64,000 bases of DNA from Enoplolaimus lenunculus (GCA_030248215.1 JASANG010004128.1:310001-374000), one strand, 5' to 3'. Positions 14,637 to 57,358 are shown, numbered from the stretch's first letter. Numbers and translations: made by a program. The notes: generated by a model from the sequence alone, not told the origin.

Positions 14637-15100
14637 CTGTAGTGACCCAAATAAGAGGGGGACTGATGTGATCCGGTATTGCAACTAGGCGATGATGTAA
14701 ATAAGAGTCCGTAAGCGGATACCGTCCCTAAACCCTAATTAGATTCAACAAATGTCAGTTCTTCCTAATTGTAGTGCATAAATGGCTCCAGGACCAAATG
14801 AAATTAAGTTCGAATCTTTAAGCGTACTTAAATTTTGAGAGAGAAAATTTGTTTTGTGTCAATAGCTTGAGCGATAATGCAAGGTTATACTTAGGAATGT
14901 ACTTTCAAAATTTAAGCATGCTTTAAAGTTTCGAAGTCAAATTATTTGGTCCTGCAGTCATTTATGCGCATAATTAGGGTTAATTGACATTTATGGACTC
15001 TAATTAGGGTCTAGGGACTCTATCCGCTTACGGACTCGTATTAGGGATACGGACTCCTAACCCAAAACGGGGACCCGCCCTTTTATTCGGGTCAATACAG
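14637..15100. mobile_element. TA-flanked palindromic MITE (TIR CTGTAGTGACCC(G/A)AATAAGA); many nested or fragmentary relatives (14188, 15595, 15765, 28454, 31021, 32982, 57841)
   Basis: ta|ctgtagtgacccaaataaga ... ttattcgggtcaatacag|ta with long inverted arms. Confidence 0.7.
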
Positions 15101-16533: not shown

Positions 16534-19500
16534 CTAGTGTCGCTTCTTTAAATTCTGAAATCGTTTTGTTAAGTCGTCGAAATCCAAATCATTTCCTCCA
16601 CCTTCTTCGGCGCCTGCTTTCGGTTCAACAGAATCATTATCTTTGTCAGGCGGTTTCAAACTTGAATAACCTGGCGGTCCTCCAAACATATCAGGCGGAG
16701 GTCCTTGCCCTCCGGGATAATTACCGGATCCCGGAACATTCGGAGGCATAAAAGGACCCGAAGGGGGATCAGGTAAATCAGGAAACCCATCTGGGAACAC
16801 ACTTGCTGTGGGCAACGGAGCAGTAGCATTATCGCTGCTAGACGTTTGCGTATTTGGGGGGATATTGTCCTAAAAAAGGTTAGATAGCTGGTGTAATCGG
16901 ATTTCAGGTGTTATGAAATAACTGAGCCTAGCGGGTTAAACGCGTATAATATACAAACAGAGGGTGTGAAGCCTTTTGAACTCGATGCATTTGTACCAGT
17001 TTATCGTTATTCTTTGAAATGTTTTATTAACAAAAAATTACTTTTCCAAAAAATATTCTTAGTGAAATCCTTGGGTATCTTCCACCAAAAACACCTCTCG
17101 TGCAGTTGATTTTTTGCAAACATTTCAATTACTTATTACGTACAAATATTAAATCTCTCAAAATTGATTTCAGACCACTTACGTGCTGCAAGTTTGGATA
17201 ATTGAACGGTTGTTGGGTTGGCGGTCCAGGATAACCACTTGGCGTAGTTACGTTTTCAGTACCAATTGGAGGCTTCTCATCACCCGAAGTAGAGCCACCG
17301 CCACCGCTAGTAACAGCTCCCCCTGGTGGATAGGTCCATCCGTAACCTTGCTAAAACACAAAAAATAAATGTTTTTTTGAAAACCAACCGTCCCGATTCA
17401 TAAAATTCAATATAATCTGTTGTTATGTTCACATACGGACGTGACAACATAGAAAAATGGTGTTTTGCGTTTTGGTTAAAAATAGCACTCTTCTACGTTG
17501 ATTTTAGGTTTGTACATGAATATTCGTATTTTCGTGGTTTACATCTAACTACATAACGTTACTACATTAACACAAACGATGCGTATTATAACTTCAGCGC
17601 CAACAAGAATATCCAATTTTTCCAACTGCACAACATAAGTAAACAAAAGTTAACGAGAGCATTAGAATTTCACCTGTCCCTGATTCTGAAAATCAATTAG
17701 CATAGCTTCAGCGGTGGCGACTTCATCTTCCCGTAAAACTGCCATATCTGGCTTGAAAGGTACACCATGACTTTTTGCTATTTCGACCATATACCTGTGA
17801 AATGTTCAAATACATGAATATGATTTCAAAACATTACTTGGCATAGAGCGTATTATTCGATTGGCTTTAATACCTAACAGCCCTCACCACGTAAATAAGC
17901 TTCTCCTGATCTCAAGAATATATAATTTAAAGTTGTTGAGCTCTCAACAACGTAGAAATTCAACATTTTGTCTCGTATGTTATATCAAAAGCTGATCAAG
18001 TAGGTTACAGGAATTTTTAAACATTCACAGTATATTTTATTAATATGAAAAAATTTAACAAACCGGAAATTTGATTTACTTTTCAACTAAAATTTTCGGT
18101 GGCGCTGCAACCGACAACTTTTGCATGAGCTTGGGACTGACTTTACCGAGCTGATTTTCTCGACATGCTTCTAAAAACGGTTTGCCGTATTTTGCAGTAA
18201 GCTGGTCAGCTATTACCTAAAATTAAAACTAATATAATACAGGTTTCAAACTACAGCCTTGTTTAATCGAATGCTACTGCAAGCAAAATAAAGCGTTGTA
18301 TTCAAGGCGGTAATGCGTCATAGCTATAAAAGGCTTTTTATGCACAGTTTTCACAACCAATATGCAACCCAACATCCTGTTAATATCATAACTGCACAAA
18401 ATAACAACGAGTCACAATGAAACCTAATAATAGGGAAACAATTACGTGGTTAAGGAAGTAGTCGAGAGAGATTATGGGCATACACAGGAACAGCTTATAC
18501 GAACTTTAGTGATAAAATCGGTCCACAACCTTGGCAAGTCAATTATGTCTATAAATCCAAAGAATGAATTTCAAGCCCTAGTCGATTCCTATTTTTACAT
18601 GCTGTGCGCGGAAATAGTGTATATATACAATACCTCGAATTAATTTTAGAGGTACTAGTATTGAATCGATATATACCGCTACCGATAAATTTGTAATGTG
18701 TTCTCAGACGAATTTAGTTGAATTAATTACGTAGCGTCTACGAAATCATGCTCATCATGGGGCGGTTTCGAATATAGAGCAGATCCCAGATTCAGGCTAA
18801 TAATAAGGACCTACAGCATTAATACCGTTATTTTGATTTTCAGGGAACATTTTTGTACCTACAACACATACGTAATCTATGAAACCTGAACGAGCAGTTG
18901 TAACTCGACGCAGAGTGACGGCCTCGAAAAACACATATAGATAATTGTTCAATCACTTGTTCACCGCCTTGACATTTTTACTGAAGTTTGTTTTGTCAAG
19001 CAACAAGCCTTATATAACGGAAATTAAGGCTGGCTTGTAATAAGCTTCAGAAAATTCCGATTTGTTAAAATAGGTTATTGCCAGAAATAACTTTGAAAGT
19101 TGAGCTAAAAAGACAGTATGTAGAATGCTGGAATGCAGCTGTCCAAGAAAGGCTGGATTTCAGAACACGAGAGAAGGTAATGTTTGTGTTTGCCAAGGCA
19201 AATATACCTGCAGAACAGTTACCTATATACATGTAACTGAAAATGTCTTCAACACTACAGAACTTATACTGGTCGTGTATGTAATTACTTAACTTAAATT
19301 CTGGAATATCTGACTGAATTCGAATTGCTGCCCAAATCACACTGTTGATTGCCTCTTCTACACCTTCATCAATTGTTCTGCAATACACAGTGGCTACGTT
19401 ACACAGGCATTTATGCGCCCATTTGAAGCTTTAACTTCAGTGATAGTTAAAGATTGACAAACGTAAGAAATTAAAGTTGATTAACAATGCAGTAAATCAA

Positions 19501-22500
19501 CATAAAACTAGCAACAACCCTTCGGCTGATTGATTATTAAAAATGTGGCCAGCCGAAAACCCGGGTGGTCTACCTACGTATCTATATAACATATATAATA
19601 TATAATATATATATGTATATATACATATAAATCCACTTAAAACCGCAGGCACCTCTATGAACAGTGAAAATCAAAACGAAACTCTGCTACCGCGTCCTGT
19701 GTAGACGACGCGCGCCCTTGGCACACCGTCGGAGGCGTGATAAATATGCGAACGGTGAAAAAGTCCTTACGCCTGTGTAAAGACACGTGTAATATTGGCT
19801 CATGGAACATCAGAACGCTACTTAAAAACGGGTATGAGGAACTTCTTACTTAAAAACGGGTATGAGGAACTTCTATATAGATCCCTCGGTAATCGTCACA
19901 TACATGTAGCGGCCCTATCGGAACTACGATTGACGAAAACTGGTACTACTATCACCTCGCCAGAGGCAGAATACCGTGTGCTATTTTTCTGGTGCAGAAA
20001 CGACGGGTCAGCAGGGTGTAGGTATCGCGATTAGCACGGAACTGTTTGAGTCCGTCATGAGATGGTTTCTTGTCTGCTCACGTTTGGTCTACGCGAGACT
20101 TCGTGCAAAACCTTTCAATCTTTCGATCATCTCTGCCTACGGCTCAACTAATGATCAGCCAGTCGATGTGAAAGACAACTTGATGGAGGAACTAACAGAA
20201 CTCATTTCTGGTACTCCTTCTAATGATCTGCTCATTGTGTGTGGTGATTTCAACGCACAAATAGGGCCCCGTGGGTGCGGCGAAGAATCTGTAACAGGGT
20301 TGTTCACTAGCGGAACCCGCTCTGACAATGGTAATAGATTACTGGCGCTAGAAGAGACGCACGAAATGTTCCTGGTTAACACTATCTTTCGTCACCCTGT
20401 CATAAAATTGGAACGTACACATTTTCACAAAAAGCAACGACCAATCAACTTCATGGCATTGCGCGATCAAACTGTGGCTGAAACCTTCCGACTTTCTCTG
20501 GCTAACCGATTTGCTGCGCTGGAGCAAGTTGAAAACCTGTCTTCGGAAAAACGATGGGACACGATTTCCGACTGCACTGTATCCTCATTGAGAGCGGCAC
20601 TGCCCGTCCAGAGGCGAGATAAGCATGTACGCTGGCTAGAAGATTCTACAATAAACCAAGCAGTAAAATTAAGCCGCAGCTACAACAACCGAACAAGATC
20701 AATATTGAAAACGAAGCTTTACAACGGTATAAAAAATGATAGAGAAAATCAGTTTAAAGCAATTACAACTGAGCTAAATCATGCTGCTCAAGTGAATGAT
20801 CAGCACAGATTATATAAACTTATTCGAAAATGTTCGCAAGTACCGTTGGCAACTCGAGGCATCATAAAAGATGTATATGTAACAGCCTGGTTTCTGAAGC
20901 AGCACATGTACAACGCTGGAGTGAACCCTTTGAGCAACTGCATAATAAGCGTCTGCCGGAAAACCCAATATCCGACGAGGAGCTGAGCTTTAGTGGCTTC
21001 TATACAGCTGACAACAGCGATCCGCCAACGCTGAGCGAAGTTCAGGATGCAGTGAATAAACTTCGCAATGGCAAAGCTCCTGGCATAGATGGTATTCCAT
21101 CAGACTGTTTCAAACGCTCAAATGCACTAACCCAGCAACTTCACAGCTTATTATCTGAAATTTGGGCATCCGAGTCTATCCCGATCTCCTGGCGAACAGC
21201 CATCATACTGCCTTTCTATAAAAAGGCGATAAATCCAGTTGCTCGAATTATCGCGGTATATCGCTACTGAACACCGCTTTTAAAATCTTCGAAGCCGTCA
21301 TTGCAAATAGATTCAATGAATTCAAGGGAAAATTTGAACGAGAGCAACAATGCGGATTCCGAACAGGGCGTAGTACCATCGATCAAATTTTGACTATGCG
21401 CGTTCTACTGGAATCTCTGCACGAGCACCGCCAGCCTGCCTCACGGTGTTCCTTCAAAACTAGTTTCGCTTACAAGAGCCATCTTTGAGCCGTCGTTCGG
21501 TTGTGCGCGTGTGAACGATACGCTGTCGCGATCTTTTGAGATCAAGTCCGGTGTGAGACAGGGTTCAATACTGTCACCCACGTTGTTCAACTATGCGATA
21601 GCCTGGGTTCTGGAAACAGCTTTGAAAGGCAACGACGGTGTTCAATACAGCATGTCTGATAGATTCACAGATGCAAAATATGCTGACGACATTGCAATAG
21701 CCGGCACCTCCTCAGATACTCTTCAGCAGGTTTTAGACCGTGTCAACATGGCTGCTAAGCGCATGGGCCCCAACATCAGTGACACTAAAACAAAGGTAGT
21801 GACCTGTTGCATAAACCAGCCATCAAACATCGTGCTTAACGGCAAAGCACTAGAACGTGTTCAGAATTTCTGCTATCTCGGAAGTGTTTTAACATGTACT
21901 GGCTCGTCAGAAGGCGAAGTAACTAATCGCACAAACTGTGCACGGAGTGCATTCGGTGCGTTACGAAAGTTTTGGCGAGCTGAAGACATCTTGCTGAACA
22001 CAAAACTTAACATTTATAGCGCCGCAATCAGACCAGTATTGCTGTACGGTTGTGGCACGTGGTCCATGAAGCAAAGTTCTTTTCAACAAATCAACGTTTT
22101 TGAAAACTACTGCCGTAGGCGTATACTGCACCAAACAATCACGTCTTCACTTACTCGGACACTCTTTACGGATGCCAGAGCAACGAATACTGCGAAAAAT
22201 GGTACTGGTGAAAACTCCGACCGGACTTTTCTAGGACAAAAATTTTCAATGTTAAAACGTGAAGACGTGAACTTTTTTTGAGGCGGACATTCGGCAAAAT
22301 ATGATATTATATTACGCTGAGTACTCATAATTTTTTAATAGCGTTACATTTGCGGGGAATTTTTGTCGTTGAGCGATGAGTAATCTTCAGTTGAGTTGGA
22401 AACACGGTCTGGAATGAAAAAAAACGGTCCAAAAAGTCGGTTTGCAAAATTTTAAGCCTGCCCCCCAAGAAAGCTGCCCCCCAGCGGAAATTTTCAAGCT

Positions 22501-25266
22501 GTGGAGAAGCCAGATATATAGATATATATAAATATTATATAATATATATAAACATATATGTCAGGGTTTCAACAGAAACTAAGTTTTATTGGAAGAGGAA
22601 CAGAAATTTGATAGTAATTTTCATCACCGAAGTAATACTGAACTTTTTCCAAAACTAGCCAATAAAGGTCTTAAGCGAATTTTCAGTTATTTTATCACAA
22701 AGTTTTGCTAAAACATTAGCTTTTCAATCTAGCCGTTTATTAACAAAATTGAACTAAGTGCAAAAACACTACTTTTCGAAATAACAACTTTTTAAAAACA
22801 AACAAAGTTTCCAATATTTAGATGATTATGAATAATTCACCACAAAACCTAAAAAATTCCGGCTCATCATCTTTGAATGAAGGAACATTAACTGGTGCAG
22901 AAATTGGATTTTTGCAGACAAGAATTTCGGTTGAACACTGATATAAGTAGCTATTCAGGGTACAACCGCAATTCCTTTTCCGGCCGGAAATCCTGCAAAA
23001 ATTCAATTCCTGTTCCTGTTCCTGCATTCAAAGATGCAGGAACCGCAATTTTTCCGGTGTTGTGGCAAAATAATCACAATTATTTGAACATTGGAAACTT
23101 TGTCTTTAAAAAATTTTATTTCGAAACGAATTTTTTTTTGCAATTAGTTCGCAAATCTTGGTGATACAATAGCTGCAAATTCGCTTAAGCCATTTTTTGG
23201 CAAGTTTTCTAAGAAGTTTGAGTGTAACTCTCGGTGATGCAAATTATTCCAAATTCCGATTCTTAACAATGAAATTCAATTCCTGTTCCTGTTTCTGTTA
23301 CGGCAAAATTTAATTCCTGTTGGAACCATGATATATGTAATATATATTATATATACGATATATAATGTATAAATATATTCGTAACGTGAATACATTTTGC
23401 TGTTCGTTCACGCTATTAGGGTTTACAAAAACTTAAAAATACTTCATCTGTTGGATCAAACCGAATCTAGCAAGCAGTAGATCACAATACATCTCCAGCA
23501 GTTCGTAAGCTTCGACTATGTAATCTTCGCGAATAATGTGTTCAACTCGAATACGAGCACGGTCTTCTTTGTTCTCTGAAAGCAAATTGTAGCGAATTTT
23601 TTTTATTTATTATAAAAATATACAACCAGTTTTTAGCTCATAAAACCTATGTCTGTTCAAAACACAACTATGTATGTTTATTTATCTGAGTGGTTGTGGT
23701 GTAAGCAATTCGACAATGCTATAGTTGCGATCTTGGCTGTATGTCAAAATTGAAGTTGAACAACGTGTCTGAAAAGAGATCGTCGTACACCACACAGCAC
23801 ACGAGGCCATAACTCCACCTAGTCTTAGAACCTAAGTTACGCTTATGCCTGCTTAGCGGCGTAATTAAAAACTACTTAGCATGTCCTGTACCGCAATGTA
23901 ATTGGTACCAAAAGTCCTTCGTGGCTATTGAACAATGTAATTATGCAAGTTTTGCCGCACAATTGTGATAGCTGGTTGATGCTGACGTTATATTTTTATT
24001 ATGGGTTCGGAAACTTGCAAAACCAGTAGTATTACGCTAATCTCTTAAATATGTGGACCGGGGATGGGCGTCCTCGATTAAAAACGGACATCGAGACCGG
24101 CCAAGCAGGAATCGGTCTCGCTCAATTTTTGGTCATTACCAAAAAAATTAGTTTTCAAAGAAATTTACTTTTTTCGTCGTTTGTTGTGTTTTTCACAGCT
24201 TTTTTGCGTTTTTTCAGAGTATCTGCTCGAAATCATTGCGTAACTATGAATTTCAAAATTTCAGAGCGAAATTTTATTTATCTGCGAGCACTGACTACTT
24301 CAACAGTTGTACTGTCATACACATGCTGAATCCTCAACTTCTGGTCTCGGTTCCAAACCGTCGAGACTCAAAAAGCGAGACCGAGACCTGCCGAAGACCG
24401 AAACTTCCATTCCAGATGGAACTGGGGTAGCCAGCTTCCATAATCTTTCTGTTGGTTTTTCAATTAATTCCTGGTTCTGTTTCCGATTTCTAAGTTTTCT
24501 GAATTTTGTGCGTTCTTGCATATTATTGGTGTTGCAAGATTAGTTGAATCAGACACGGCGGCTTGATGTGAAGGAATAAGCGGTTTTTATACTTTTTCGA
24601 GATACCGTTAGTTCACTTGGCCAACGGACGCTAATACGGGAATTACAGAGAAAACGACATTTACCTGTTAAGTCAGGAATTCTGTGGTATTTTGGGAAAT
24701 ACGGGAACCTGGGTGGTATTTAGTAAATTTTATCGAGGCTAAAATTTACAGCTATGGAAGATAGTGAAGTTACTTGGGAATATATGCGTTTATTTTCGGT
24801 ACGTATTTATGTAAGCCAATGACTTAGTTGAAACCCAGCTAAAGTCGCATCGCAATTGACAGTATGCAGTAAAGTTTATTGAACAGAAAGATTACGTATC
24901 GTAATTCAAATTAATTCGGAATTTTAGACATAAGCATTGCGCTAAGTTAAACATGCATTACTTACAGTTTTTGTTTCAAGCTGGTTGTAATAGAGTAAAG
25001 CATTATAACAAGCCGCGTCCCTGCATCAGAGCTAATTGCGCATCTGTGAGGACGAACTTGAATTGAGTTTTGATTTGCGCGTCTACCTAGAAATCTTCAA
25101 CTTTGTACAATGAGCACGTAAAAGACTTACCGGCAATATAATCAGCTATTTCCTTTCGTGCTTTCTGAGTAAGTTCCGTCTTTTTCTTCTCCACCAACTT
25201 TAAGCGATTGATAGCTAGACGCAAATTAGTTTTAAGTTTGTTATAATTAGGCCCAGACGAAAACAT
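16534..25266 (-). CDS. IST1: IST1 ESCRT-III-associated factor, 7 exons, 371 aa
   Basis: Exons 25266-25131, 23575-23443, 19377-19293, 18216-18080, 17794-17674, 17350-17183, 16869-16534 (1116 nt). Motifs: KLKTNLRLAINRLKL, RARIRVEHIIREDY, ELLEMYCDLLLARFGLI, a Pro-rich linker, MIM2-like FPDLPDPP and MIM1-like DFDDLTKRFQNLKK. The intron 3 donor is non-canonical (see findings). Confidence 0.95.
19790..22150 (+). mobile_element. Degenerate non-LTR retrotransposon (RTE-like LINE; APE endonuclease + reverse transcriptase), antisense in IST1 intron 2
   Basis: Endonuclease motifs GSWNIRTL, ALSELR, GVGI, ISAYG and GDFNAQIG. RT motifs KAPGIDGIP, QQCGFR, GVRQGSILSP and YADD, followed by YLGS and LLYG. Broken by frameshifts, a 28-bp tandem duplication (19819-19874) and internal deletions. 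Boundaries are approximate. Confidence 0.9.
22562..23330. mobile_element. Two inverted adjacent copies of a CAGGG-TIR MITE (22562-22940, 22957-23330); others at 40038-40451 and ~2245-2425
   Basis: cagggtttcaacag...cggttgaacactg followed by cagggtacaaccgc...cctgttggaaccatg; the two interiors are degenerate reverse complements. Confidence 0.65.
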
Positions 25267-25376
25267 GGTGGATTCTACTACAAAAACGAAAAACAAGTAG
25301 CGCAAACTATGTCGTATATGGATAATTCTTTAGTTTTAGACCGCTGTTTTGATTTCCTTATTGATTTGGCAATCAG

Positions 25377-25865
25377 TTTCGGTATATGTTTACGTAAGTG
25401 TATGTAAAGCAAATGTTGCTATTTATGTGCACATATACCGTTGTAAGAAGTTGTTGCAATGACCGCGTAGTGTAGTTGTAGCATGTTTGGCTCGAGCGCA
25501 AGAAGGCCGAGGTTCCATTCACGGTGTGGTAATAAACTTTGGGCAAAACTTCAAACAGGGGTCGTGCAGGTCGTTAGTACCAACATGAAGGTCCCACCGA
25601 GATGGGCATTGCAAACAGCAAGCCCATGAATTCGGGTAGTTGGATTCACGGCCCGAGACGGCCGCCTGTAAAAAAGAGGATTGTCGGTATATGATCACAT
25701 AATGTAAAGCAAATGTTACCTTGCCATGCCTGTGCACATATACCAGTATAAGAAGTTGTTGCATGTTTGGCTCGAGTGCAAGAGGGCCGAGGTTCGATTC
25801 CCGGCACGGTCATTAACTTTGGGCAAAACTTCAAACAGGAGTCGTGCAGACCGTTAGTACCAACA
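25377..25865 (+). mobile_element. TRIM P: miniature non-autonomous LTR retrotransposon with tRNA-like cassette in its LTRs
   Basis: LTR1 25377-25585 and LTR2 25682-25865 (LTR2 TGTCGGTAT...GTACCAACA; LTR1 starts TTTCGGTAT). PBS tgaaggtcccaccgagat at 25586-25603. PPT aaaaaagagga at 25670-25680. 5-bp TSD ATCAG at 25372-25376 and 25866-25870. Confidence 0.85.
25461..25532 (+). pseudogene. tRNA-like cassette within TRIM P LTR1 (5'-deleted copy in LTR2, ~25761-25812)
   Basis: gaccgcg-tagtgtagttg (A box) ... ggttccattc in LTR1 / ggttcgattcc in LTR2 (B box) ... cacggtca in LTR2. Confidence 0.7.
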
Positions 25866-26656
25866 ATCAGTAGTTATTATCAGAACTGCACGGTCGTGAC
25901 GACCCATTTCCCCGAAGTACTGCGAATATAATTGGTTTTCCCCCATAATTTCTCCGAAAGATATGGCCACGCCGGGAATCGAACTTCGGACCTCTGGCTC
26001 GCGAGTCAAGCGCGCTACCCATTACACCAGGCGGCTGATATCATAATTTCCTCTGGTGCTATATATCCACGAGTATGGATGTGTCTTTAACATTACACAC
26101 TCAGCTACACAAGCTACACCGCGTATACTCACATCCCCCTTCTTTAGACAGTCGCCCCGGACCGCGAATCCAAAATTCTCGGTATCCACGGGCCTGCAAT
26201 TTACAGCGCCCATCTCGGTGGACCTCCATATCAGAACTGTACGGTCAGGAGTCGTGCAGACCGTTAGTACCAACAATCAGTAGTTATTATCAGAACTGCA
26301 CGGTCGTGACGACCCATTTCCCCGAAATACTGCGAATATAATTGATTTTTCCCCTTAATTTCTCCGAAAGATATGGCCACGCCGGGAATCGAACTTCGGA
26401 CCTCTGGCTCGCGAGTCAAGCGCGCTACCCATTACACCAGGCGGCCGATATCATAATTTCCTCTGGTGCTATATATCCACGAGTATGGATGTGTCTTTAA
26501 CATTACACACTCAGCTACACAAGCTACACCGCGTATACTCACATTCCCCCTTCTTTAGACAGTCGCCCCGGACCGCGAATCCAAAATTCTCCGTATCCAC
26601 GGGCCTGCAATTTACAGCGCCCATCTCGGTGGACCTCCATATCAGAACTGTACGGT
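25836..26656. repeat. ~410-bp near-identical tandem duplication spanning the TRIM P/TRIM M junction
   Basis: Units 25836-26245 and 26246-26656 both start caggagtcgtgcagaccgttagtaccaacaatcagtagttat. The duplication creates a third M-type LTR (25878-26133) plus internal region. Confidence 0.9.
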
Positions 26657-26897
26657 TGGGACGACCGCTTTCCACAAAGTACTGCGAATATAATTGGTTT
26701 TACCCTTAATTTCTCCGAAAGATATGGCCACGCCGGGAATCGAACTTCGGATCTCTGGCTCGCGAGTCAAGCGCGCTACCCATTACACCACGCGGCCGAT
26801 ATCATAATTTCCTCTGGTGCTATATGTGCACGAGCACGTATGTGTCTTTAACATTACACACTCTGTGCATACACAAGCTACGCCACGTATACTCACA
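26288..26897 (-). mobile_element. TRIM M: second, related miniature LTR retrotransposon with tRNA-like cassette in its LTRs
   Basis: 5' LTR 26897-26640 and 3' LTR 26543-26288 (TGTGAG...CTGATA). PBS tggaggtccaccgagat at 26639-26623. PPT aaagaagggggaa at 26556-26544. 5-bp TSD GTTAT at 26283-26287 and 26898-26902. Confidence 0.85.
26725..26797 (-). pseudogene. tRNA-like (Pol III A/B-box) cassette within the TRIM M LTR; further copies at 26374-26446 and 25964-26036
   Basis: GGCCGCG TG GTGTAATGGGTAGCGC G CTTGA CTCGCGA GCCAG AGATC CGAAG TTCGATT CCCGG CGTGGCC A. Acceptor and D stems pair. Anticodon and T stems are broken. Loop triplet is CGC. Confidence 0.8.
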
Positions 26898-28012
26898 GTT
26901 ATTAGCAAAGTGAATAGGTTACTAACAGCATTGCACATCAGAAATTTATTAGGCTTCTATAAACACAAACGACAGCGACGCTGCAGACGATATTTCCCTT
27001 GTCTGGTTTGGAACCTCGAGTATCTTAGGAGAAACGATGAAAAAAGATTTTCTATGAAATTGATGCTTTTGCATAACTATACCTATTATTAATCATCTCT
27101 AGAGATGACTCACGACTAGCTACGGTATTAAAAATATGCTTCAGTTGTAGAATACGACTACGATAAAACAATCGTGTACAGATGCGGCAACATTTTTAGT
27201 TTTCAATTTGACCCAAAGCTGGAGTTGAAGCAAAGTTAAATAATAAAATTTGTGTGAAACGTGCCGTATTTGGCAATGATAAGTTACAAAACGACTTACT
27301 TTTTTACTAAATCCGAATTTGACTTTAAAGCAAAGGTTCTTGTTAAATTTTTTGCCTGCCAGTTAAAGCTATGGTGCCAGAAACTTTACTTTTAATTTAC
27401 ACCTTCTAGTTCTGATTTTGTAGTTAGATGAGTACTTGAATGAGAAATGTGCTCTTGTCAAACCGGTTTGTTTGACTTTTAAACTTTAATCAAGCTGCCA
27501 TGTTGTTCGAATTCGACTCAAGGCTAAAGTCGACTTACGTCTCATGTAACGATCAGAGGCGGAACGTGGTACTGGAATGGGGTAAGCTTAAGCTTTAGAC
27601 TATTTTTTGCTTATGTTGAGGTATAAGCTCATTCTTAAAATTTAGGCTGAGGCTTTCAGAATATGCTTATACTACTGTTTCGCCCCTTTTCTATATATTG
27701 GACAGATACGTTAAGCGCTCTGTTAAGTTTTCTAATATAAATGGCGCATATTAAACTCTTGCTCCATGTATAAACCACTTGAGGACCGTTTTCCCTGGAA
27801 ATACCATAATATAAATGTCAAGCTTTAGACTACTTTTGTTTGCGGCCTATATTGGTGAATCTTTGGGAAATCACCTGGACTACTGTTGGTTTTTTTCGAA
27901 AAAATTGAATCGACTGGTGAAGGTTTTTTCCGGAAAAAACGGAATAATTGAAAACCAAGCACTAATGCTTCCACAAGTGTAAGACGTAAAGAACGTTAAC
28001 GAATCTTTTATG

Positions 28013-40600: not shown

Positions 40601-43600
40601 GCTTGACAAATCTAGAATGCATTGATATTATATAATACTTACTTTCTTCTCACCATTTAAACTAGAATTTTAAGTACTAGAAAGTATAATCAAAACAAAT
40701 AAATTCGTTACGTACGTTGTGTGTGTGCTGTAACATTTTTATATAACACACTTAATTAAGCTGAACAAATCCAGAAAAATATTCACTAACAAGACAGTCA
40801 GAACTCCTATTGAGTGATGTTGCAAATCAAAAGTGGGCAAAATATTGTCCAAGCTGCTAAGGTTGCGGGTAAGATCCGGAATAGCTTTCCGACAACATTC
40901 AGCCAACTGAGCATAATGTCCTGAAAAAATTACACATATTTCGGATATAGGTATTATATAAACGGATTTTCGAACAGCCATTTAATAGAACAATCAGTGC
41001 CGAGGCTACGTCTTGCGCGCGATCCCCCCGCCCTCCACAACAGAGCCTGCGCGGCCTTCACAAAATTCTATGAGGTCCTCAAAGATTCATTCAGGCCCTA
41101 TTTGATCCACCCGGACCTCTTGCTATCCGCTGAAACACAGAGTTGTGCACATAGGATCTATTGAAGGGAAAACAATCAAATTAAAACCCCATTCTATCAG
41201 CGAAGCCCTATCCACAACTTAGAACTGAGAGCGAACCCAATATGCGGCAGCGGAAGTGGCGATGAAATATTGGTCAAGCGGGTGATCGAACCCAGGCCTC
41301 CCGTTTCAAACACAGACATGCTACCCACAACACCATTGGCCCATGATACAAGGCCAATTTCCCTACCATTGTTTTTTGTGTGAAATAGGAGTTTCCACCC
41401 ACTTTTTTCAAAATTGCCCAGCGAAATTTATCAAAACCAACCAGAAACACCACCAAGACTTCCAAGTGATTTAACAGAAAGGAATTTTACTGAATACTGA
41501 AACTTAAACCAGCGTCAAAATCAAACAAATACGTAATATTTTTGCTACTTGGTTGTGTTGAGTGCTTGGATGCTGTTGTCATCACCATTTTGCTATACGT
41601 TTAATAATTCTCAGTTTGTTCGTACGCGGTTAGTAGATAGTGGTATGCGGAAAAGGGCCTTATTTTAAAACATTCATTTCATATATAATTAAGAGTAAGT
41701 CTTGGCTCTACCGGAAAGTAACCTGCATGTTTTCAACATATAGATACTAATTCAAAAAGACAATTCCAAGTACTAAGCTAACAACAGCTTATATAGACCA
41801 TTATTTCACTTTTAACAGCAGTTATGACTCGTCCCAGTGTCTACATTTTATATGTATTTTTCTAAACTTGTTGAGCGAAGCTCGGAGTTTCACGAAGCGT
41901 TTTATGTTTTGTACTTGGGGGTCGAAAGGTGGATGTCCGTCCGTCCGTCTGTCCGAAAAGAATCTCAAGAACGGCTGAACCGATTTTGATAAACTTTTTT
42001 TGTTTGAAAGCCAATTATCCTGGGGTGTTAACGTCGCATTGGGGTTTTAAAATTTTAAGCCGTTTATTAGCTACAGGCTAATTTGCATAATTAAGTCTAA
42101 ATTAGGACTTTCCACAGTATTTCACTAATTATTACAGTTATAGAAGCAATCTAATTTAAGCATTAAACGGTTTTTGTGTGCGATGAATCTGCGTAGATTG
42201 TTTACAAACCTCCAAAACCGATAACTGAGCAGTTAGCTAATAGATAATTTGCATATTAGCATAGTTTATAAGCCTAAATTAGGACTTTTCACAATATTTC
42301 ACTAATTATTAAGGTTAAAAGCTATATAATTTCAGCACTAAAGGGTTTTTAGGTGCGAGGAATTTGAATAAATAGTTTAAAAACATCCAAAACCGATAAT
42401 TGAATAGTTAGCTAATAGCTAATTTGCATATTAGGTTAATTGACAAGACAAAACTAGGACTTTCTAATTTATTTCAATAATTATTAGGGTCTACTGAAGG
42501 TTTTTGGGTGCGAGGAATCGGAATAAATTGTTTACAAACCTCCAAAACCGACAAATGAATAGTTAGTTAATAACTAATTTGCATATTACATTAATTGCTA
42601 CGTGTTTTTGAGCTTCGCTCAATAAATGTAGTCCCACTACGACTGGTATTCAAATATAGCGTCCGATGCATGTTATCAGAAACGTTGTTCAGCTAATCAT
42701 TAAACAAGATCTGAATCCATGTTCCTACTATGACTGACATGGGGGCTACCTACTCCGTGGAAAGATCAAAGAACCTAAGAGGCTAGCTAGATGACGCAGC
42801 GGTAGAGCGTATAAGCATGTCTGACATGCTTGTCCTGGTGTATATGCAATATATACAATGCACATTGTATAGTACGCTTGCCGGCAGCATGCGGTCGATT
42901 CGACGATAGAAGCAGTGGTAGAGTCGGGTTACGTGGAGCAGTGGTAATAGCGTCTGCCTGACACGTAGAAGGTCGCTAGTTCGAAACTACCCGTAACCCG
43001 CTTTTATAGCTACTTAGTTAAAAGGTCTGAAATCCCGGTTCCAACCTTGACTAACAGAGCGGTAGCTTAAGGATCCGTAGGCTGTGAGCGGTCCCCGACT
43101 CTGATCCCTAACGGCAATGACAATACCGGGTAATGACATATCCGTTACTTAAACAGTTTCATTAAAGGAATTAACTCAAGAGAAAAAACGGGTTTCTGGA
43201 CTTTATTTTTCTTTTGTTTTCAACTTAGAGAGTTATTTTGGTTCAACGTCGTTCGTTGGAACTTAACGTACTCAGGTATCCGTAAGTTACGTGTATTTCG
43301 TATACTTATTTGTTCGTATTATTACAAGTATTACTTGTTATTAAACCCTAACCTGAGTTACGTTCATCATTAGCGAGTTTAACGGGCTTCAGTGTATAAA
43401 ATCGGAGATCGAATAAACTCGATCATTCCTCTAGCAATCCTATTGTTCTAAACCCATGTCTACTAATATCTCCCTAGTTTACATAGGCTAAGAGTTCGAG
43501 CCACCAATACATTCGTGCTTTTCCACTGTTTAATAGTTTAGATCAAAAGTACCCGACCGTGCAAGTGGAGCGAAGGTCTCCGTTTTAGATGTGGCTCTAA

Positions 43601-48026: not shown

Positions 48027-48821
48027 TTACACCTTATGCATATCAGTATACTTTTTACAAAAGCGTCTTTTATCGTACATGCGATAATTGTTACAAATAA
48101 ATGTTGGCAGTGTTTTACGAATATCTTGCAGCTGATATGAGCTTACGCCGTTGACAACAATCCAAGGAACGTAGTCTTTTTTTACAGGCCAAACGTTCCG
48201 CGTTTTTCGACCCATTCGCATTGTCAAATCTTTGCCTTCTTGCCCGTTTTTACACCTGAGTATATTTTGTTGGTTCGTCGATGAAATATATTCTTGTTGA
48301 AAGCACAAATCCTGCGAATATTGAGCAGGTCGACGCCGGCTTAACTGGTACATCATACATCGAATAAATGGAAACCAAACAGACCGATCTGGTTCGTATC
48401 TCATCACACACGCGTGTAACCGAATTTGTTCGCATTCTTCCGGTCCATGAAAGCAAGTTATTGTGGTTTCACCAGTAACCGGATCTTTACGTTCTTGAGC
48501 ATTTCCGTACGGTATTAGGTCAAGGTCAACAATTTGACGAAGATTTCTCCAAACTTCAGGGTAAAGTATATCGTTGAAGAACGCCTGACAATATGGACAC
48601 TTTGGATCGTAGAGGATTTGCAGTTTCATTCGAACGCTTGATGTTGCATTAACATGGTCACATTGCTGTGTAACGCGACAAAGTTGAGCAATTTCTGGAG
48701 AGTCACACCACATCCCGGGAGGTACATTACAATTGGTCGGCTTCTGAGAGGATGCGAAATGTAGCAAAGAAGATAATATTGGAAAACCAATTTTAAGGCT
48801 AATTAATAATTGAGTTAGCAT
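48027..48821 (-). CDS. GILT/IFI30-like lysosomal thiol reductase with N-terminal saposin A-type module, single exon, 264 aa
   Basis: Signal peptide; SapA-like CNVPPGMWCDSPEIAQLCRVTQQC; active-site CPYC; LIPYGNA; signature-like CFHGPEECEQIRLHAC; YVPWIVVNG. Confidence 0.9.
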   Translation of the reverse strand: MLTQLLISLKIGFPILSSLLHFASSQKPTNCNVPPGMWCDSPEIAQLCRVTQQCDHVNATSSVRMKLQILYDPKCPYCQAFFNDILYPEVWRNLRQIVDLDLIPYGNAQERKDPVTGETTITCFHGPEECEQIRLHACVMRYEPDRSVWFPFIRCMMYQLSRRRPAQYSQDLCFQQEYISSTNQQNILRCKNGQEGKDLTMRMGRKTRNVWPVKKDYVPWIVVNGVSSYQLQDIRKTLPTFICNNYRMYDKRRFCKKYTDMHKV

Positions 48822-48940
48822 TTTATATCACAATTTCGAATTAATAGAGTATTGACTAATAACTTAACTTTATATTTACACTTTGTATGGAAATATCGTT
48901 AGATATGCAATAGATGGGACTTTTCCGTTATCTTCACCAG

Positions 48941-49499
48941 CCGCTTTTGCCCAAACGTGGTTTGAATTTGAAAATTGTTGCATATTTGAGCTTCTCATGA
49001 CCTCCTCAGATCGGTCCACTCCTAAATTTTAATTTTTGAAAAATTCAAATTTTCAAGGTCCCAAGGTCCCACTGTCTTGGGACCCAATTTAACAAATTAT
49101 ATATCATTATATGCAGCTTGCAGAGCTGAGTTGAATGGTATTAAATTTTTCGGAATTAGACTATTGCTTAACGAATTATGATCAAACAACTGATTTAGCG
49201 CCGTCCATAATCGTTTGTATTGTGCCAAATCAATTATCTGACAATAACTCGTAAACAAATCGTCTGATAAAGAAAAATCTGACACCATTCCACTCAGCAC
49301 TGTAAGCTACATATAATGATATATAATTTGTTAAACTTTTGGACAAAATTTTTGGGTTCCAAAACAGTGGGACCTTGGGACCTTGAAAAATTGAATTTTT
49401 TAAAAATTAAAATTTAGGCGCGGACCGATCAGGGCAGGTCATGAGAAGGTAAAATATGTAAAAACTTTTCAAAATCAAACCATATTTGAGCAAACGCGG
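48941..49499. mobile_element. MITE with ~150-bp inverted arms just upstream of the GILT-like gene (relatives at ~29990-30370 and 44585-44730)
   Basis: ccgcttttgcccaaac...aaggtcccaaggtcccactg versus cagtgggaccttgggacctt...tttgagcaaacgcgg. Confidence 0.7.
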
Positions 49500-51037
49500 G
49501 CTAAAAAGATAACAAAAAAGACAACAACTAGAGTACACACCGTGCACACTAGCATGTACCCGGCACGCGTTGCGTTTGTTAGCCTTACTCGTCAATTTTG
49601 GTGGCGCGTTAGGCACAGAAACGCAGTTAGTAGGAATTGTGATACTGTGCATGCTGCCAAAATACTACCTATTATATAATACTTAGCTATAAGTGGTCAT
49701 ATTTCTTTCAAGTTTATGGATATATTCTCCGTCCACATTATGACACAAGGTGGTTCATGGCAGCAACATAAATTACGCTGAGATGAAGTGCAAACAGCTT
49801 TCAGTTGCATACTATTCTCTATAAAAGTCGTCATCGACTCTTGGATAAACTAGTACTGTGGCGAGCGCAAATACTCAGTCTTTGATTTGAAATAAACACC
49901 AAGGTGCAACCAGATATTGGTTTTCGTTTCTGCTACAAATACACACTGAGCCAAGACAAATTTTATGAAATCGCTTAATTATTTATTCAGTAGTGGCCAA
50001 ATCGCATACTCGATGGATACATGCCTTTGGCAAAACCTAAGTTTGATCTGGTAATTCCAGTGCAGTTTTGGTTGCGTAATTTGTTTGTTTGCCACGATCA
50101 ACAAAATAAAATTTGATCGGTTTAAGTTTAGTATAATTTTATTAAACATACAACAACGTTTGAAAGCACATTAAATCTAAAATTTTGTAAAGGGTAACAC
50201 TAAAAATTGAAAATTTATTTAAACAAGAATCCCTTGTAGGCATAAAGTCTAAACAGGTCGATGTTTTACTGACGCGTTTAGCGTACAGTGGTAGAACAAC
50301 TTGTATAAAAAATACACACTTTTTTCGTTTTATAGTACGTAAAAACTAAAGTGTAAAGAGCAACAGCAAAAATACTTCAAAAAACCTAAAATTTAATAAG
50401 TAAATGACGAAAAACGCTGCGCTTCAAAAACGTATAAACTTGTTCCAAAATGTGTAAAAAACCATAATACCTGCACCATCGTTAAAAAATGCCAGCTCGA
50501 ACGGTTTAGTTAATAGTTGGGGCTATTTTTAGGATTGCCACAGAAGTTTTACATAACAAACGTTGTTTAGTTAGCCGTTCATCGCAATGCTTAATGGTGA
50601 ACAGTTTAAAATGTTGTAATATTGCTTGTCTGTAAAGAAAAAACTTGTAGATCTGTTACATTTTTTCTAGTCAGCTACAATTTTATGGTCAAAGATGTGA
50701 GTAAAACGTGCAAAACGAACCCAGTGTAGGCAGAAGTGCCCCCCAAGCCCTCCAATTTTGGTGGCCGACTGATACATGGGCCCATCTTGGCAAACTAAAA
50801 TTTTTTCGCAGACCACAAAGTTAAAAAGCTGTGAAACATTTAATTGAGAGCCTCCAAGGACCTGTCTGAATTACCGACCATCCTAATACCGGCCATGAAA
50901 GAACCAATCAGCAGAAAAAACCAAATGTTGAATTATATGATTACATTGTCTTCTGAGTTAAGCTACTTTGAACATTGAATGATTCACTTGCAGCTTTACT
51001 CTTGGCTTTATGTAGTGATGACAGTCTTTCAAACGCT

Positions 51038-56000: not shown

Positions 56001-57358
56001 GAGATAACAGTAAACCAGTCGTAGTGGGACTACATTTATTGAGCGAAGCTCGAACACACGTAACTAATTAAGGTAATATGCAAATTAGTTATTAGCTAAC
56101 TATTCATTTGTCGGTTTTGGAGGTTTATAAGCAATTTCCTCAGATTCCTCGCACGCAAAAACCTTTCAGCCACCCTAATAATTATTGGAATAATTCAAAA
56201 AGTCCTAATTTTATCTCGTCAATTAATCAAATATGCAAATTATCTATTAGCTAACTATTAGATAATCGCCTTTAAAGGTTTGTACACAATTTATTCAGAT
56301 TCCTCGCACCCGAAAACCCTTTAGTGCTGAAATGATATTGCTTTTAACCTTAATAATTATTGGAATAATTTAAAAAGGCCTAATTTTGCCTGGTCAATTA
56401 AGCTAATATGCAAATCAGCTATTAGATAACTATTCAATTATTGGTTTTGGAGGTTTGTAAACAATTTATTTAAATTTCTCGCACCTAAAATCCCTTTAGT
56501 GCTGAAATTCTGTTGCTTTTAACCTTAATAATTAGTGAAAGTTTGTAAAAAGTCCTAATTTAGGCTTATAAACTATGCTAATATGCAAATTATCTATTAG
56601 CTAACTGCTCAATTATCCGTTTTGAAGATTTGTAAACAGTCTACGCAGATTCCTCGCACGCAAAAACTCTTTAATGCTAAAATTAGATGGCTTCTAACTG
56701 TAATAAGTAGTGAAATATTGTGGAAAGTCCAAATTTAGGCTTAATTAATTATGCAAATTAGCGTTTAGCTAATAAACGGCTTAAAATTTTCAAACCCCAA
56801 TGCGAGGTTAACACTCCAGGATAATTGGCTCTCAAACAAAAAAAAAAGTTTGTCAAAATCGGTTCAGCCGTTCCTGAGATTCTTTTCGGACGGACAGACG
56901 GACAGACGGACATCCACCTTTCGACCCCTAAGTACAAAACATAAAACGCTTCGCGAAACTTCGAGCTTCGCTCAACAAACAATATTCTTTTCTACATTTT
57001 TGTATCTTTGCTAAAATTAGCAGGGTTTAATCCGAAACAGGCAAACATTCCCAAGCTTATTTTGTATAATTAAAACACAGATTAAGGACTGTGAACAAAA
57101 GAAACCACTGCCACATATGCGTGATTTTTTTGATGAACACAGTCCACTGCTAGCAGTAAATACCTTTAAGGTTGAAAGGTTTTCGCATCCAAAGTTATAC
57201 ACTCTTCGTTCGATGTCCCATCCGCGATACGAACTTTCAACTGTTGACAGCACGTGACCGTCTGGACACTTAAAATCAATCTTTCCGATGTTTTCTGACA
57301 GCGCAACATTAAATAAAAGTAATATATGCGTTAAAAGACTAATTGTTAAGCTAGTCAT
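53081..57358 (-). CDS. Secreted protein with dermatopontin-like N-terminal domain and long basic low-complexity tail, 4 exons, 627 aa
   Basis: Exons 57358-57164, 55518-55394, 54987-54829 and 54485-53081 are GT-AG and in frame (1884 nt). Signal peptide; DFKCPDGHVLSTVESSY..ERRVYNFGC; DLTCPDASYTAGV..RWRLRCC; LNQW..SIYDHRQRDRRWWFEVC, matching the repeated dermatopontin DRxW-x-C pattern. Confidence 0.75.
56012..56978 (-). mobile_element. Same DINE-1/HINE-like family, longer copy with an extra internal subrepeat (dermatopontin-like gene intron 1)
   Basis: Same termini, microsatellite and stem-loop; about 190 bp longer because of an extra central repeat. Confidence 0.8.

Follow-up and report, generated by a model that had tools for sequence, protein, structure and literature searches.

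Structure and dispersal of the two elements

The window is a stretch of 64,000 nucleotides recorded under Enoplolaimus lenunculus (GCA_030248215.1, JASANG010004128.1:310001-374000), and all positions are counted from its first letter. Its genes are metazoan (KDELC, GILT, and IST1). Two short elements lie next to each other: P on the plus strand (25377-25865, 489 bp in total) and M on the minus strand (25878-26897), arranged tail to tail. It is well supported that both are non-coding TRIMs (miniature retrotransposons with terminal repeats), whose long terminal repeats (LTRs) carry a tRNA-derived cassette. M has three LTRs and two interiors. The features are as follows.

25372-25376, plus strand: left target site duplication (TSD) of P, ATCAG
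25377-25585, plus strand: 5' LTR of P (P LTR5), 209 bp, starting with TT and ending with CA
25427-25437, plus strand: TATA-like 11-mer at -34 to -24 relative to the cassette start; M LTRa has the same 11-mer at the same spacing
25461-25532, plus strand: tRNA-derived cassette of the P 5' LTR, with an A box (25468) and a B box (25512) that has one mismatch
25586-25603, plus strand: primer binding site (PBS) of P, complement of the tRNA-Gln 3' end with one mismatch, zero spacer after the LTR
25586-25681, plus strand: P interior, 96 bp, with a predicted hairpin right behind the PBS and the polypurine tract (PPT) at 25670-25680
25682-25865, plus strand: 3' LTR of P (P LTR3), 184 bp, TG...CA, intact B box at 25792
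25866-25870, plus strand: right TSD of P, ATCAG, separated from the TSD of M by 2 bp (TA)
25873-25877, plus strand: downstream TSD of M, GTTAT on the plus strand
25878-26133, minus strand: 3' LTR of M (LTRc), 256 bp, cassette at 26036-25964 (Rfam tRNA, 24.0 bits, under the gathering score)
25836-26656, no strand: 410-bp head-to-tail tandem duplication, units 25836-26245 and 26246-26656, differing by 6 substitutions and 1 indel
26134-26228, minus strand: M interior copy 2 (PBS, hairpin, PPT), 95 bp
26229-26245, minus strand: 17-bp tail of LTRa brought by the duplication, with the LTRa-specific base
26246-26287, minus strand: duplicated flank, 42 bp, comprising the M TSD, TA, the P TSD, and the terminal 30 bp of the P 3' LTR
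26288-26543, minus strand: duplicate of the M 3' LTR (LTRb), 256 bp, cassette at 26446-26374 (Rfam tRNA, 30.2 bits)
26544-26639, minus strand: M interior copy 1, 96 bp, PPT at its 3' end
26640-26897, minus strand: 5' LTR of M (LTRa), 258 bp, cassette at 26797-26725 (Rfam tRNA, 39.7 bits), A box at 26790, B box at 26745
26898-26902, plus strand: upstream TSD of M, GTTAT on the plus strand

The LTR limits follow from the junctions with the PBS and the PPT, without recourse to the TSDs. Among flank lengths from 3 to 8, only 5 gives identical flanks, for P and for M alike. The chance of equal flanking 5-mers is about 0.0016 per element (97-109 of about 63,000 window positions, for a segment of the same length). 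The initial annotation, made from the sequence alone, had called TRIMs here with LTRs of 184-258 bp, 96-bp interiors, 5-bp TSDs, and no open reading frame. All of this was confirmed, with 95 bp for the interior in the duplicate, and none of the five stop-to-stop frames across P and M matched Pfam. The PBS adjoins the 5' LTR, as described, and the PPT sits 1 nt ahead of the 3' LTR. P is the two-LTR element that had been described, but M has its third LTR through the 410-bp duplication, which the annotation lacked.

Of the features by which TRIMs are recognized, the following are present: two LTRs within less than about 1 kb (489 bp in P, 610 bp in the LTRa-interior-LTRb unit of M), a PBS behind the 5' LTR, a PPT before the 3' LTR, a TSD of 4-6 bp (5 bp in two of two), no coding capacity, and dispersed copies with independent flanks. 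The termini vary. All three M LTRs end with TA, and related copies in read data end with CA; thus, the terminal TA of M is private to this copy and common to its three LTRs.

Dispersal was seen in three DNA sequencing runs (X1 to X3) from two samples of one study, one of them possibly the window's own source. Contigs of all three runs cross both outer junctions; those of X1 and X3 show no differences and those of X2 show few. In X1, the summed contig depth is 30-40 over the flanks but reaches about 3,000-184,000 over the elements, roughly 1,000-fold more, and it changes stepwise at their edges; summed depth is not copy number and is taken only as indicating the order of a thousand related copies. 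Among the contigs listed, loose ends of low agreement (0.38-0.41) mark the exact M LTR termini, at 26133 (19 and 23) and at 26290 (62, 31, and 60), and other loose ends fall near the 3' end of P (92 and 95). Dozens of unrelated flanks are found at the exact LTR ends, and the LTR is joined directly to the PBS in other copies also. The junction-crossing contigs, the depth, and the many unrelated flanks indicate dispersed, multi-copy families, and multi-copy status was one of the checks set by the initial annotation. No empty-site joint was found among the joints listed in the read data, and neither BLAST nor nhmmer found further copies of P or M within the window.

The tRNA-like heads with A and B boxes and the very high contig depth could also be expected from tRNA-derived short interspersed elements (SINEs) or tRNA pseudogenes lying in tandem by chance. 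This explanation is hardly credible, since 84-100 bp of a TG...CA repeat precede the cassette, the repeat junctions hold a PBS and a PPT, the LTR-PBS junction recurs in contigs of other copies, the TSDs bracket the whole two-LTR unit, and there is no A-rich or simple-repeat tail. Membership in the tRNA-derived SINEs, which have a tRNA head at the 5' end and a simple-repeat tail, was rejected on the same structure of LTR, PBS, and PPT.

The duplicated unit of M includes the last 30 bp of P, both TSDs, the M 3' LTR, the interior, and 17 bp of LTRa. Because the unit spans the flank and TSDs, and the LTRa fragment bears the base specific to LTRa, it is explained by a local duplication after both insertions and not by an LTR-LTR recombination array. 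Thus, the third LTR of M likely arose from this later event. An assembly artefact, in which two haplotypes were joined in tandem, is somewhat unlikely. In its favour, the inner junction (26245/26246) is bridged by none of the contigs listed, and the inclusion of flank and TSDs would fit such a join as well. Yet 7 of the 410 positions are not the same in the two units. The second sample, by contrast, departs from the window by 1 substitution over 823 bp of left flank and by 1 substitution and 3 gap positions over 570 bp of right flank. Changes against the read majority are moreover present in both units.

The LTR divergence suggests the order of P insertion, M insertion, and duplication. The LTRs of P are 87% identical over aligned columns (Kimura two-parameter distance, 0.142), and LTRa is 91.8% identical to LTRb and LTRc (0.088); such divergence can be inflated by template switching between copies. 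P is probably the older copy, crippled by now, and the insertion of M likely took place 7 bp from P's target site. The two target sites (25866-25877) would have formed a pre-insertion site of 5-mer, TA, and 5-mer, which is a single case. Their closeness could reflect targeting to Pol III (RNA polymerase III) units, an open-chromatin hotspot, or chance.

The tRNA-derived cassette

The gathering score of the Rfam tRNA family (RF00005) is 29 bits, and it is passed by the cassettes of LTRa and LTRb but not by that of LTRc. The P cassettes have no Rfam hit on their own; P LTR5 matches the M cassette at 52 of 73 columns (71%). The sense-oriented tRNA-like sequence with A and B boxes reported for each LTR is upheld by Rfam in M and by alignment to M in P, except that the B box of P LTR5 is mismatched. 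The reported 5' deletion of this part in the second LTR of P was also correct: a 25-bp deletion removes the A box of P LTR3. A and B boxes are found in every M LTR, conserved as in the TRIM class Helenus, and are degenerate in P. The A box reads TRGTG.

The parent tRNA of the cassette is not discriminated by comparison with five viral tRNAs, each of which shares 41-48 identical columns with it; one viral hit is tRNA-Pro. It may bear a likeness to tRNA-Trp. Rfam scans gave no 5S match in the cassette. A sigma-70 promoter scan matched the chance level and is irrelevant for a eukaryote.

In an alternative reading, the cassette would be kept as an RNA structure besides being a promoter, and its tRNA-like fold, cut by RNase P or RNase Z, would set the transcript ends or free tRNA-like small RNAs. 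The acceptor stem of M LTRa is intact (seven of seven pairs, one of them G-U), its second pair is swapped between M and P (G-C versus A-U), and LTRa and LTRb pass the gathering score. Against these stand the mispaired T and anticodon stems, folding no better than in shuffled sequences (z of -0.43 and +0.37), and the absence of any ARAGORN tRNA call in the LTR cassettes. Cutting the 5' cassette would also destroy the template. Such an additional role of the fold is very improbable.

The comparison between P and M separates their parts clearly. The cassette is 71% identical, the interior 69%, U3 (the unique 3' region) 52%, and the downstream part 40%. Against 300 shuffles, the cassette and the interior are far above the best score, while U3 and the downstream part are at or below it. 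Two diverged neighbours thus mark the parts under selection: the cassette, the interior, and the TATA-like 11-mer at fixed spacing. The cassette likely acts as an internal Pol III promoter.

Primer, helper and proposed mechanism

The PBS had been described as complementary to the 3' end of tRNA-Gln. The match stands, but it is imperfect, with one mismatch in P and one base short in M (26639-26623 in interior copy 1). In viral contigs, the PBS complement preceded by a T-loop was found at five loci; ARAGORN called tRNA-Gln(UUG) in four of them and left the fifth uncalled. The duplex energy of both PBSs with tRNA-Gln is about -30.5 kcal/mol, versus -10 to -13 kcal/mol with their own cassettes; thus, the cassette is not complementary to the PBS, as is also the case in Helenus. 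Two other PBS hits in viral contigs, one inside a deltaretrovirus env gene (L006) and one in apparently coding DNA (L007), had no tRNA called and were rejected as chance matches.

A metagenome scan for the PBS, covering 42 of 64 parts, gave at least 121 loci (94 distinct). Among the matches listed, CA lies 0-4 nt upstream in 34 of 44 exact tRNA-Gln complements versus 10 of 50 inexact ones, and this enrichment indicates that the Gln PBS is a working type elsewhere. None of the loci listed resembles P or M beyond the PBS region, and none of 16 selected loci contains a tRNA.

It is quite probable that P and M represent two related high-copy, non-autonomous TRIM families, with a Pol III promoter cassette in the LTR, that are copied in trans by an LTR retrotransposon primed with tRNA-Gln. 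Here, the structure is observed, whereas the polymerase, termination, packaging, and helper are inferred. The A and B boxes would be bound by TFIIIC, with TFIIIB on the TATA-like 11-mer (-34 to -24), and transcription would start at the first base of the cassette in the 5' LTR. Since the LTRs contain no T run of four or longer, read-through is proposed: Pol III would pass through the interior and the 3' LTR until the first T run of the flank, where it would terminate, as in SINEs. With such a start and flank termination, the repeated R region would run from the cassette to the LTR end. The RNA may be packaged by the Gag of the helper, possibly through the hairpin behind the PBS. Minus-strand synthesis would be primed by the host tRNA-Gln and plus-strand synthesis by the PPT, and the integrase of the helper would generate the 5-bp TSD. 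The hairpin is predicted in both interiors, of which only that of P folds better than shuffles (z of -2.5 versus -0.6), so that a packaging role is no more than a lead. On the sense strand, P has no run of four T and M has one, in the interior, which is missing from about 98% of the related-copy depth in X1. This scarcity is compatible with Pol III read-through and is no proof of it.

Several points weigh against this mechanism. Measured against shuffles, the T runs are not significantly scarce (P = 0.18 in P and 0.44 in M), and the TATA-like motif near -30 fits RNA polymerase II (Pol II) equally well as Pol III. Both copies are degenerate, with broken termini, imperfect PBSs, and, in P, an A box deleted or a B box mismatched. 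The TSD length is based on two insertions only, the dispersal on three runs, two samples, and one study. The PBS was compared with viral tRNA-Gln genes only. In other organisms, a Gln PBS precedes both a gag of BEL/Pao type (L067, with DUF1759) and a gag-protease of Gypsy type (L074).

The first two points would suit ordinary Pol II TRIMs, transcribed by Pol II from the TATA-like motif of U3, with the tRNA-derived stretch carried along as a passenger since a SINE or tRNA inserted into the LTR long ago; the conserved 11-mer occupies the expected place of a Pol II TATA box. A passenger is, however, expected to decay like the rest of the LTR, while the cassette is the best-conserved LTR part between P and M, and its A and B boxes are kept at tRNA spacing. 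Pol II transcription with a passenger cassette is therefore improbable, and the Pol III promoter is preferred.

As regards the helper, DUF1759 is a domain linked to BEL/Pao-type gag proteins. The PBS spacers of L067 and L074 are 2-3 nt, versus none in P and M. According to the available text on Cer1, a Gypsy element of C. elegans, its PBS is directly adjacent to the LTR (PMC3315495), a zero spacer as in P and M. A Gypsy-type helper is slightly favoured over a BEL/Pao-type one. L014/L047, an element with 387-bp LTRs and a zero-spacer Gln PBS, was rejected as helper: no Pfam family was above the cut-off, a 5-bp TSD is missing, and the one Atlas lead is weak and gag-like. In L014 (4794-7883), this LTR element is complete and young, with identical LTRs and only gag-like reading frames. 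It has no reverse transcriptase motif, and its flanks agree over 3 bases only.

A broader reading is rather doubtful. It supposes that Pol III TRIMs arose independently in nematodes as an ancient radiation, now counting thousands of copies, in which two or more families are primed by tRNA-Gln and possibly another, at 42650-43122, by tRNA-Pro. These would depend on a helper producing 5-bp TSDs, carry no own terminator, and, like SINEs, end in T runs of the flank. An integrase preferring sites beside Pol III units would explain the insertion of M 7 bp from P.

Neighbouring sequences and comparison with known TRIMs

The IST1-like gene lies on the minus strand (25266 and 16534-19430). Its first coding exon matches Pfam Ist1, and the downstream exons were assigned by eye. 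P and M stand upstream of its start codon, with the left TSD of P about 106 bp from the ATG, and a local regulatory effect is possible. The GILT gene (48027-48827, minus strand) is apparently intronless, and the best relatives found share no more than 41% identity with it; its named top matches include Priapulus, Blastocystis, a thrips, Trichinella, and Gnathostoma. The matches of KDELC span animals, with no nematode among the 120 listed. These protein matches single out no phylum. At 27566-27700 there is a further repeat of very high depth, with TTAGGC runs in its relatives. TTAGGC is described in a published abstract as the telomeric repeat of nematodes, and these runs are the main hint of a nematode host, which is probable.

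Other repeats in the window were noted. The region 42650-43122 (plus strand) is a possible third Pol III TRIM, with an LTR-like CA end and, directly behind it, the start of a tRNA-Pro-type PBS at 42740. ARAGORN calls a tRNA-Val (GAC) at 42926-43001 (Rfam, 37.5 bits), followed by a run of four T. A repeat (41871-42649) cuts the 5' side of this candidate, for which no second LTR was found and whose similarity to P and M is not above shuffles. A weak tRNA-like unit at 41270-41342 (minus strand; 22.1 bits, E-value 4.9) aligns to the M LTR cassette with a score of 45 against a maximum of 37 in 200 shuffles, and could be the head of a SINE or an old solo LTR. A frameshifted fragment of a long interspersed element with endonuclease and reverse transcriptase domains lies at 19934-22281 (plus strand). 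A dispersed element with a 175-bp internal minisatellite, in three near-full copies, and several palindromic elements resembling miniature inverted-repeat transposable elements were also found (8860-9642, 41871-42649, 56011-56975; 22605-23255; 48920-49520; 14700-15042).

Among known systems, P and M are closest to Helenus (TRIMp3), the TRIM class defined by an LTR that contains a tRNA-derived sequence (Kojima 2024, PMC10886601). The initial annotation had proposed this likeness, and P and M do fall under the definition. They share with Helenus a TRIM structure below 1 kb, a tRNA-like sequence in each LTR, a PBS and a PPT, a non-functional tRNA fold, and the lack of a self-priming cassette. Their sizes are within the 311-1263 bp listed for Helenus, whose Pol III transcription is itself not validated (PMC10886601).

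P and M differ from Helenus in several respects. The common A box of Helenus is TRGCY, versus TRGTG in P and M. In the available tables of the paper (Tables 1 and S1), no nematode is included. As far as its available data go, the TSD of animal Helenus is 4 bp wherever given (two are not determined), as the initial annotation had correctly stated, and 5 bp is found only in fungi and Selaginella; the animal lineages there are primed by tRNAs for Lys, Leu, Trp, Arg, His, Ile, Pro, Glu, and Ser, in contrast to Gln in P and M. Searches of the Helenus supplement for "Gln" and the PBS motifs gave no match (a control motif gave 48), and neither did four motifs of P and M (PMC10886601). Because the TSD is 5 bp and the flanking 4-mers differ, P and M are not placed with the described animal Helenus lineages. 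The weight of this difference is tempered by ta-TRIM, in which the TSD changes within one lineage, from 5 bp in Taenia to 4 bp in Echinococcus, and is read as a helper switch in the available text (PMC4558846). The available parts of PMC3118150 and PMC2836005 give no TSD length by superfamily.

Ajax, found in nemerteans, is an animal TRIM with 5-bp TSDs and a Pol III-type LTR cassette like P and M, but it differs from them by a 5S-derived cassette, a tRNA-Leu primer, and its hosts (PMC10886601). Cassandra, according to the available text, also carries a Pol III-type cassette in TRIM LTRs and occurs in three-LTR forms, but it is a plant element with a 5S-derived cassette, terminators inside the LTR, and an 18-bp R region; its arrays are LTR-interior repeats, whereas the third LTR of M came with a duplication including flank and TSDs (PMC7215508). 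Membership in Cassandra or Ajax was rejected, as Rfam scans found no 5S-derived cassette, and Troyka was rejected on termini and TSD. PbTRIM (PMC3532108), ta-TRIM (PMC4558846), and biv-TRIM (PMC6934838) are short non-coding LTR elements of invertebrates; PbTRIM and ta-TRIM use tRNA-Leu, and biv-TRIM has no typical PBS. The available texts on these three include no nematode and, unlike what is seen in P and M, mention no LTR cassette with A and B boxes.

Later mentions of Helenus (PMC13570524, PMC12859917) add nothing on nematodes in their available parts. No nematode TRIM or Gln-primed Helenus was found in the freely accessible literature, the search covering neither subscription papers nor Repbase and Dfam. 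No prior account was found there of the family, which the initial annotation had suggested may be undescribed; the class itself is already published, and its definition covers P and M. What is probably new is the tRNA-Gln primer, the 5-bp TSD in an animal, and a new phylum for the Helenus class. Elements of this kind inflate counts of tRNA genes, at the depth seen here they may contribute sizeably to the host's tRNA-like sequence, and the comparison of P and M gives a concrete promoter model for the class. TRIMp3/Helenus is extended to a probable new phylum, and the 4-bp TSD rule for animal Helenus is broken, which implies another independent origin or another helper clade.

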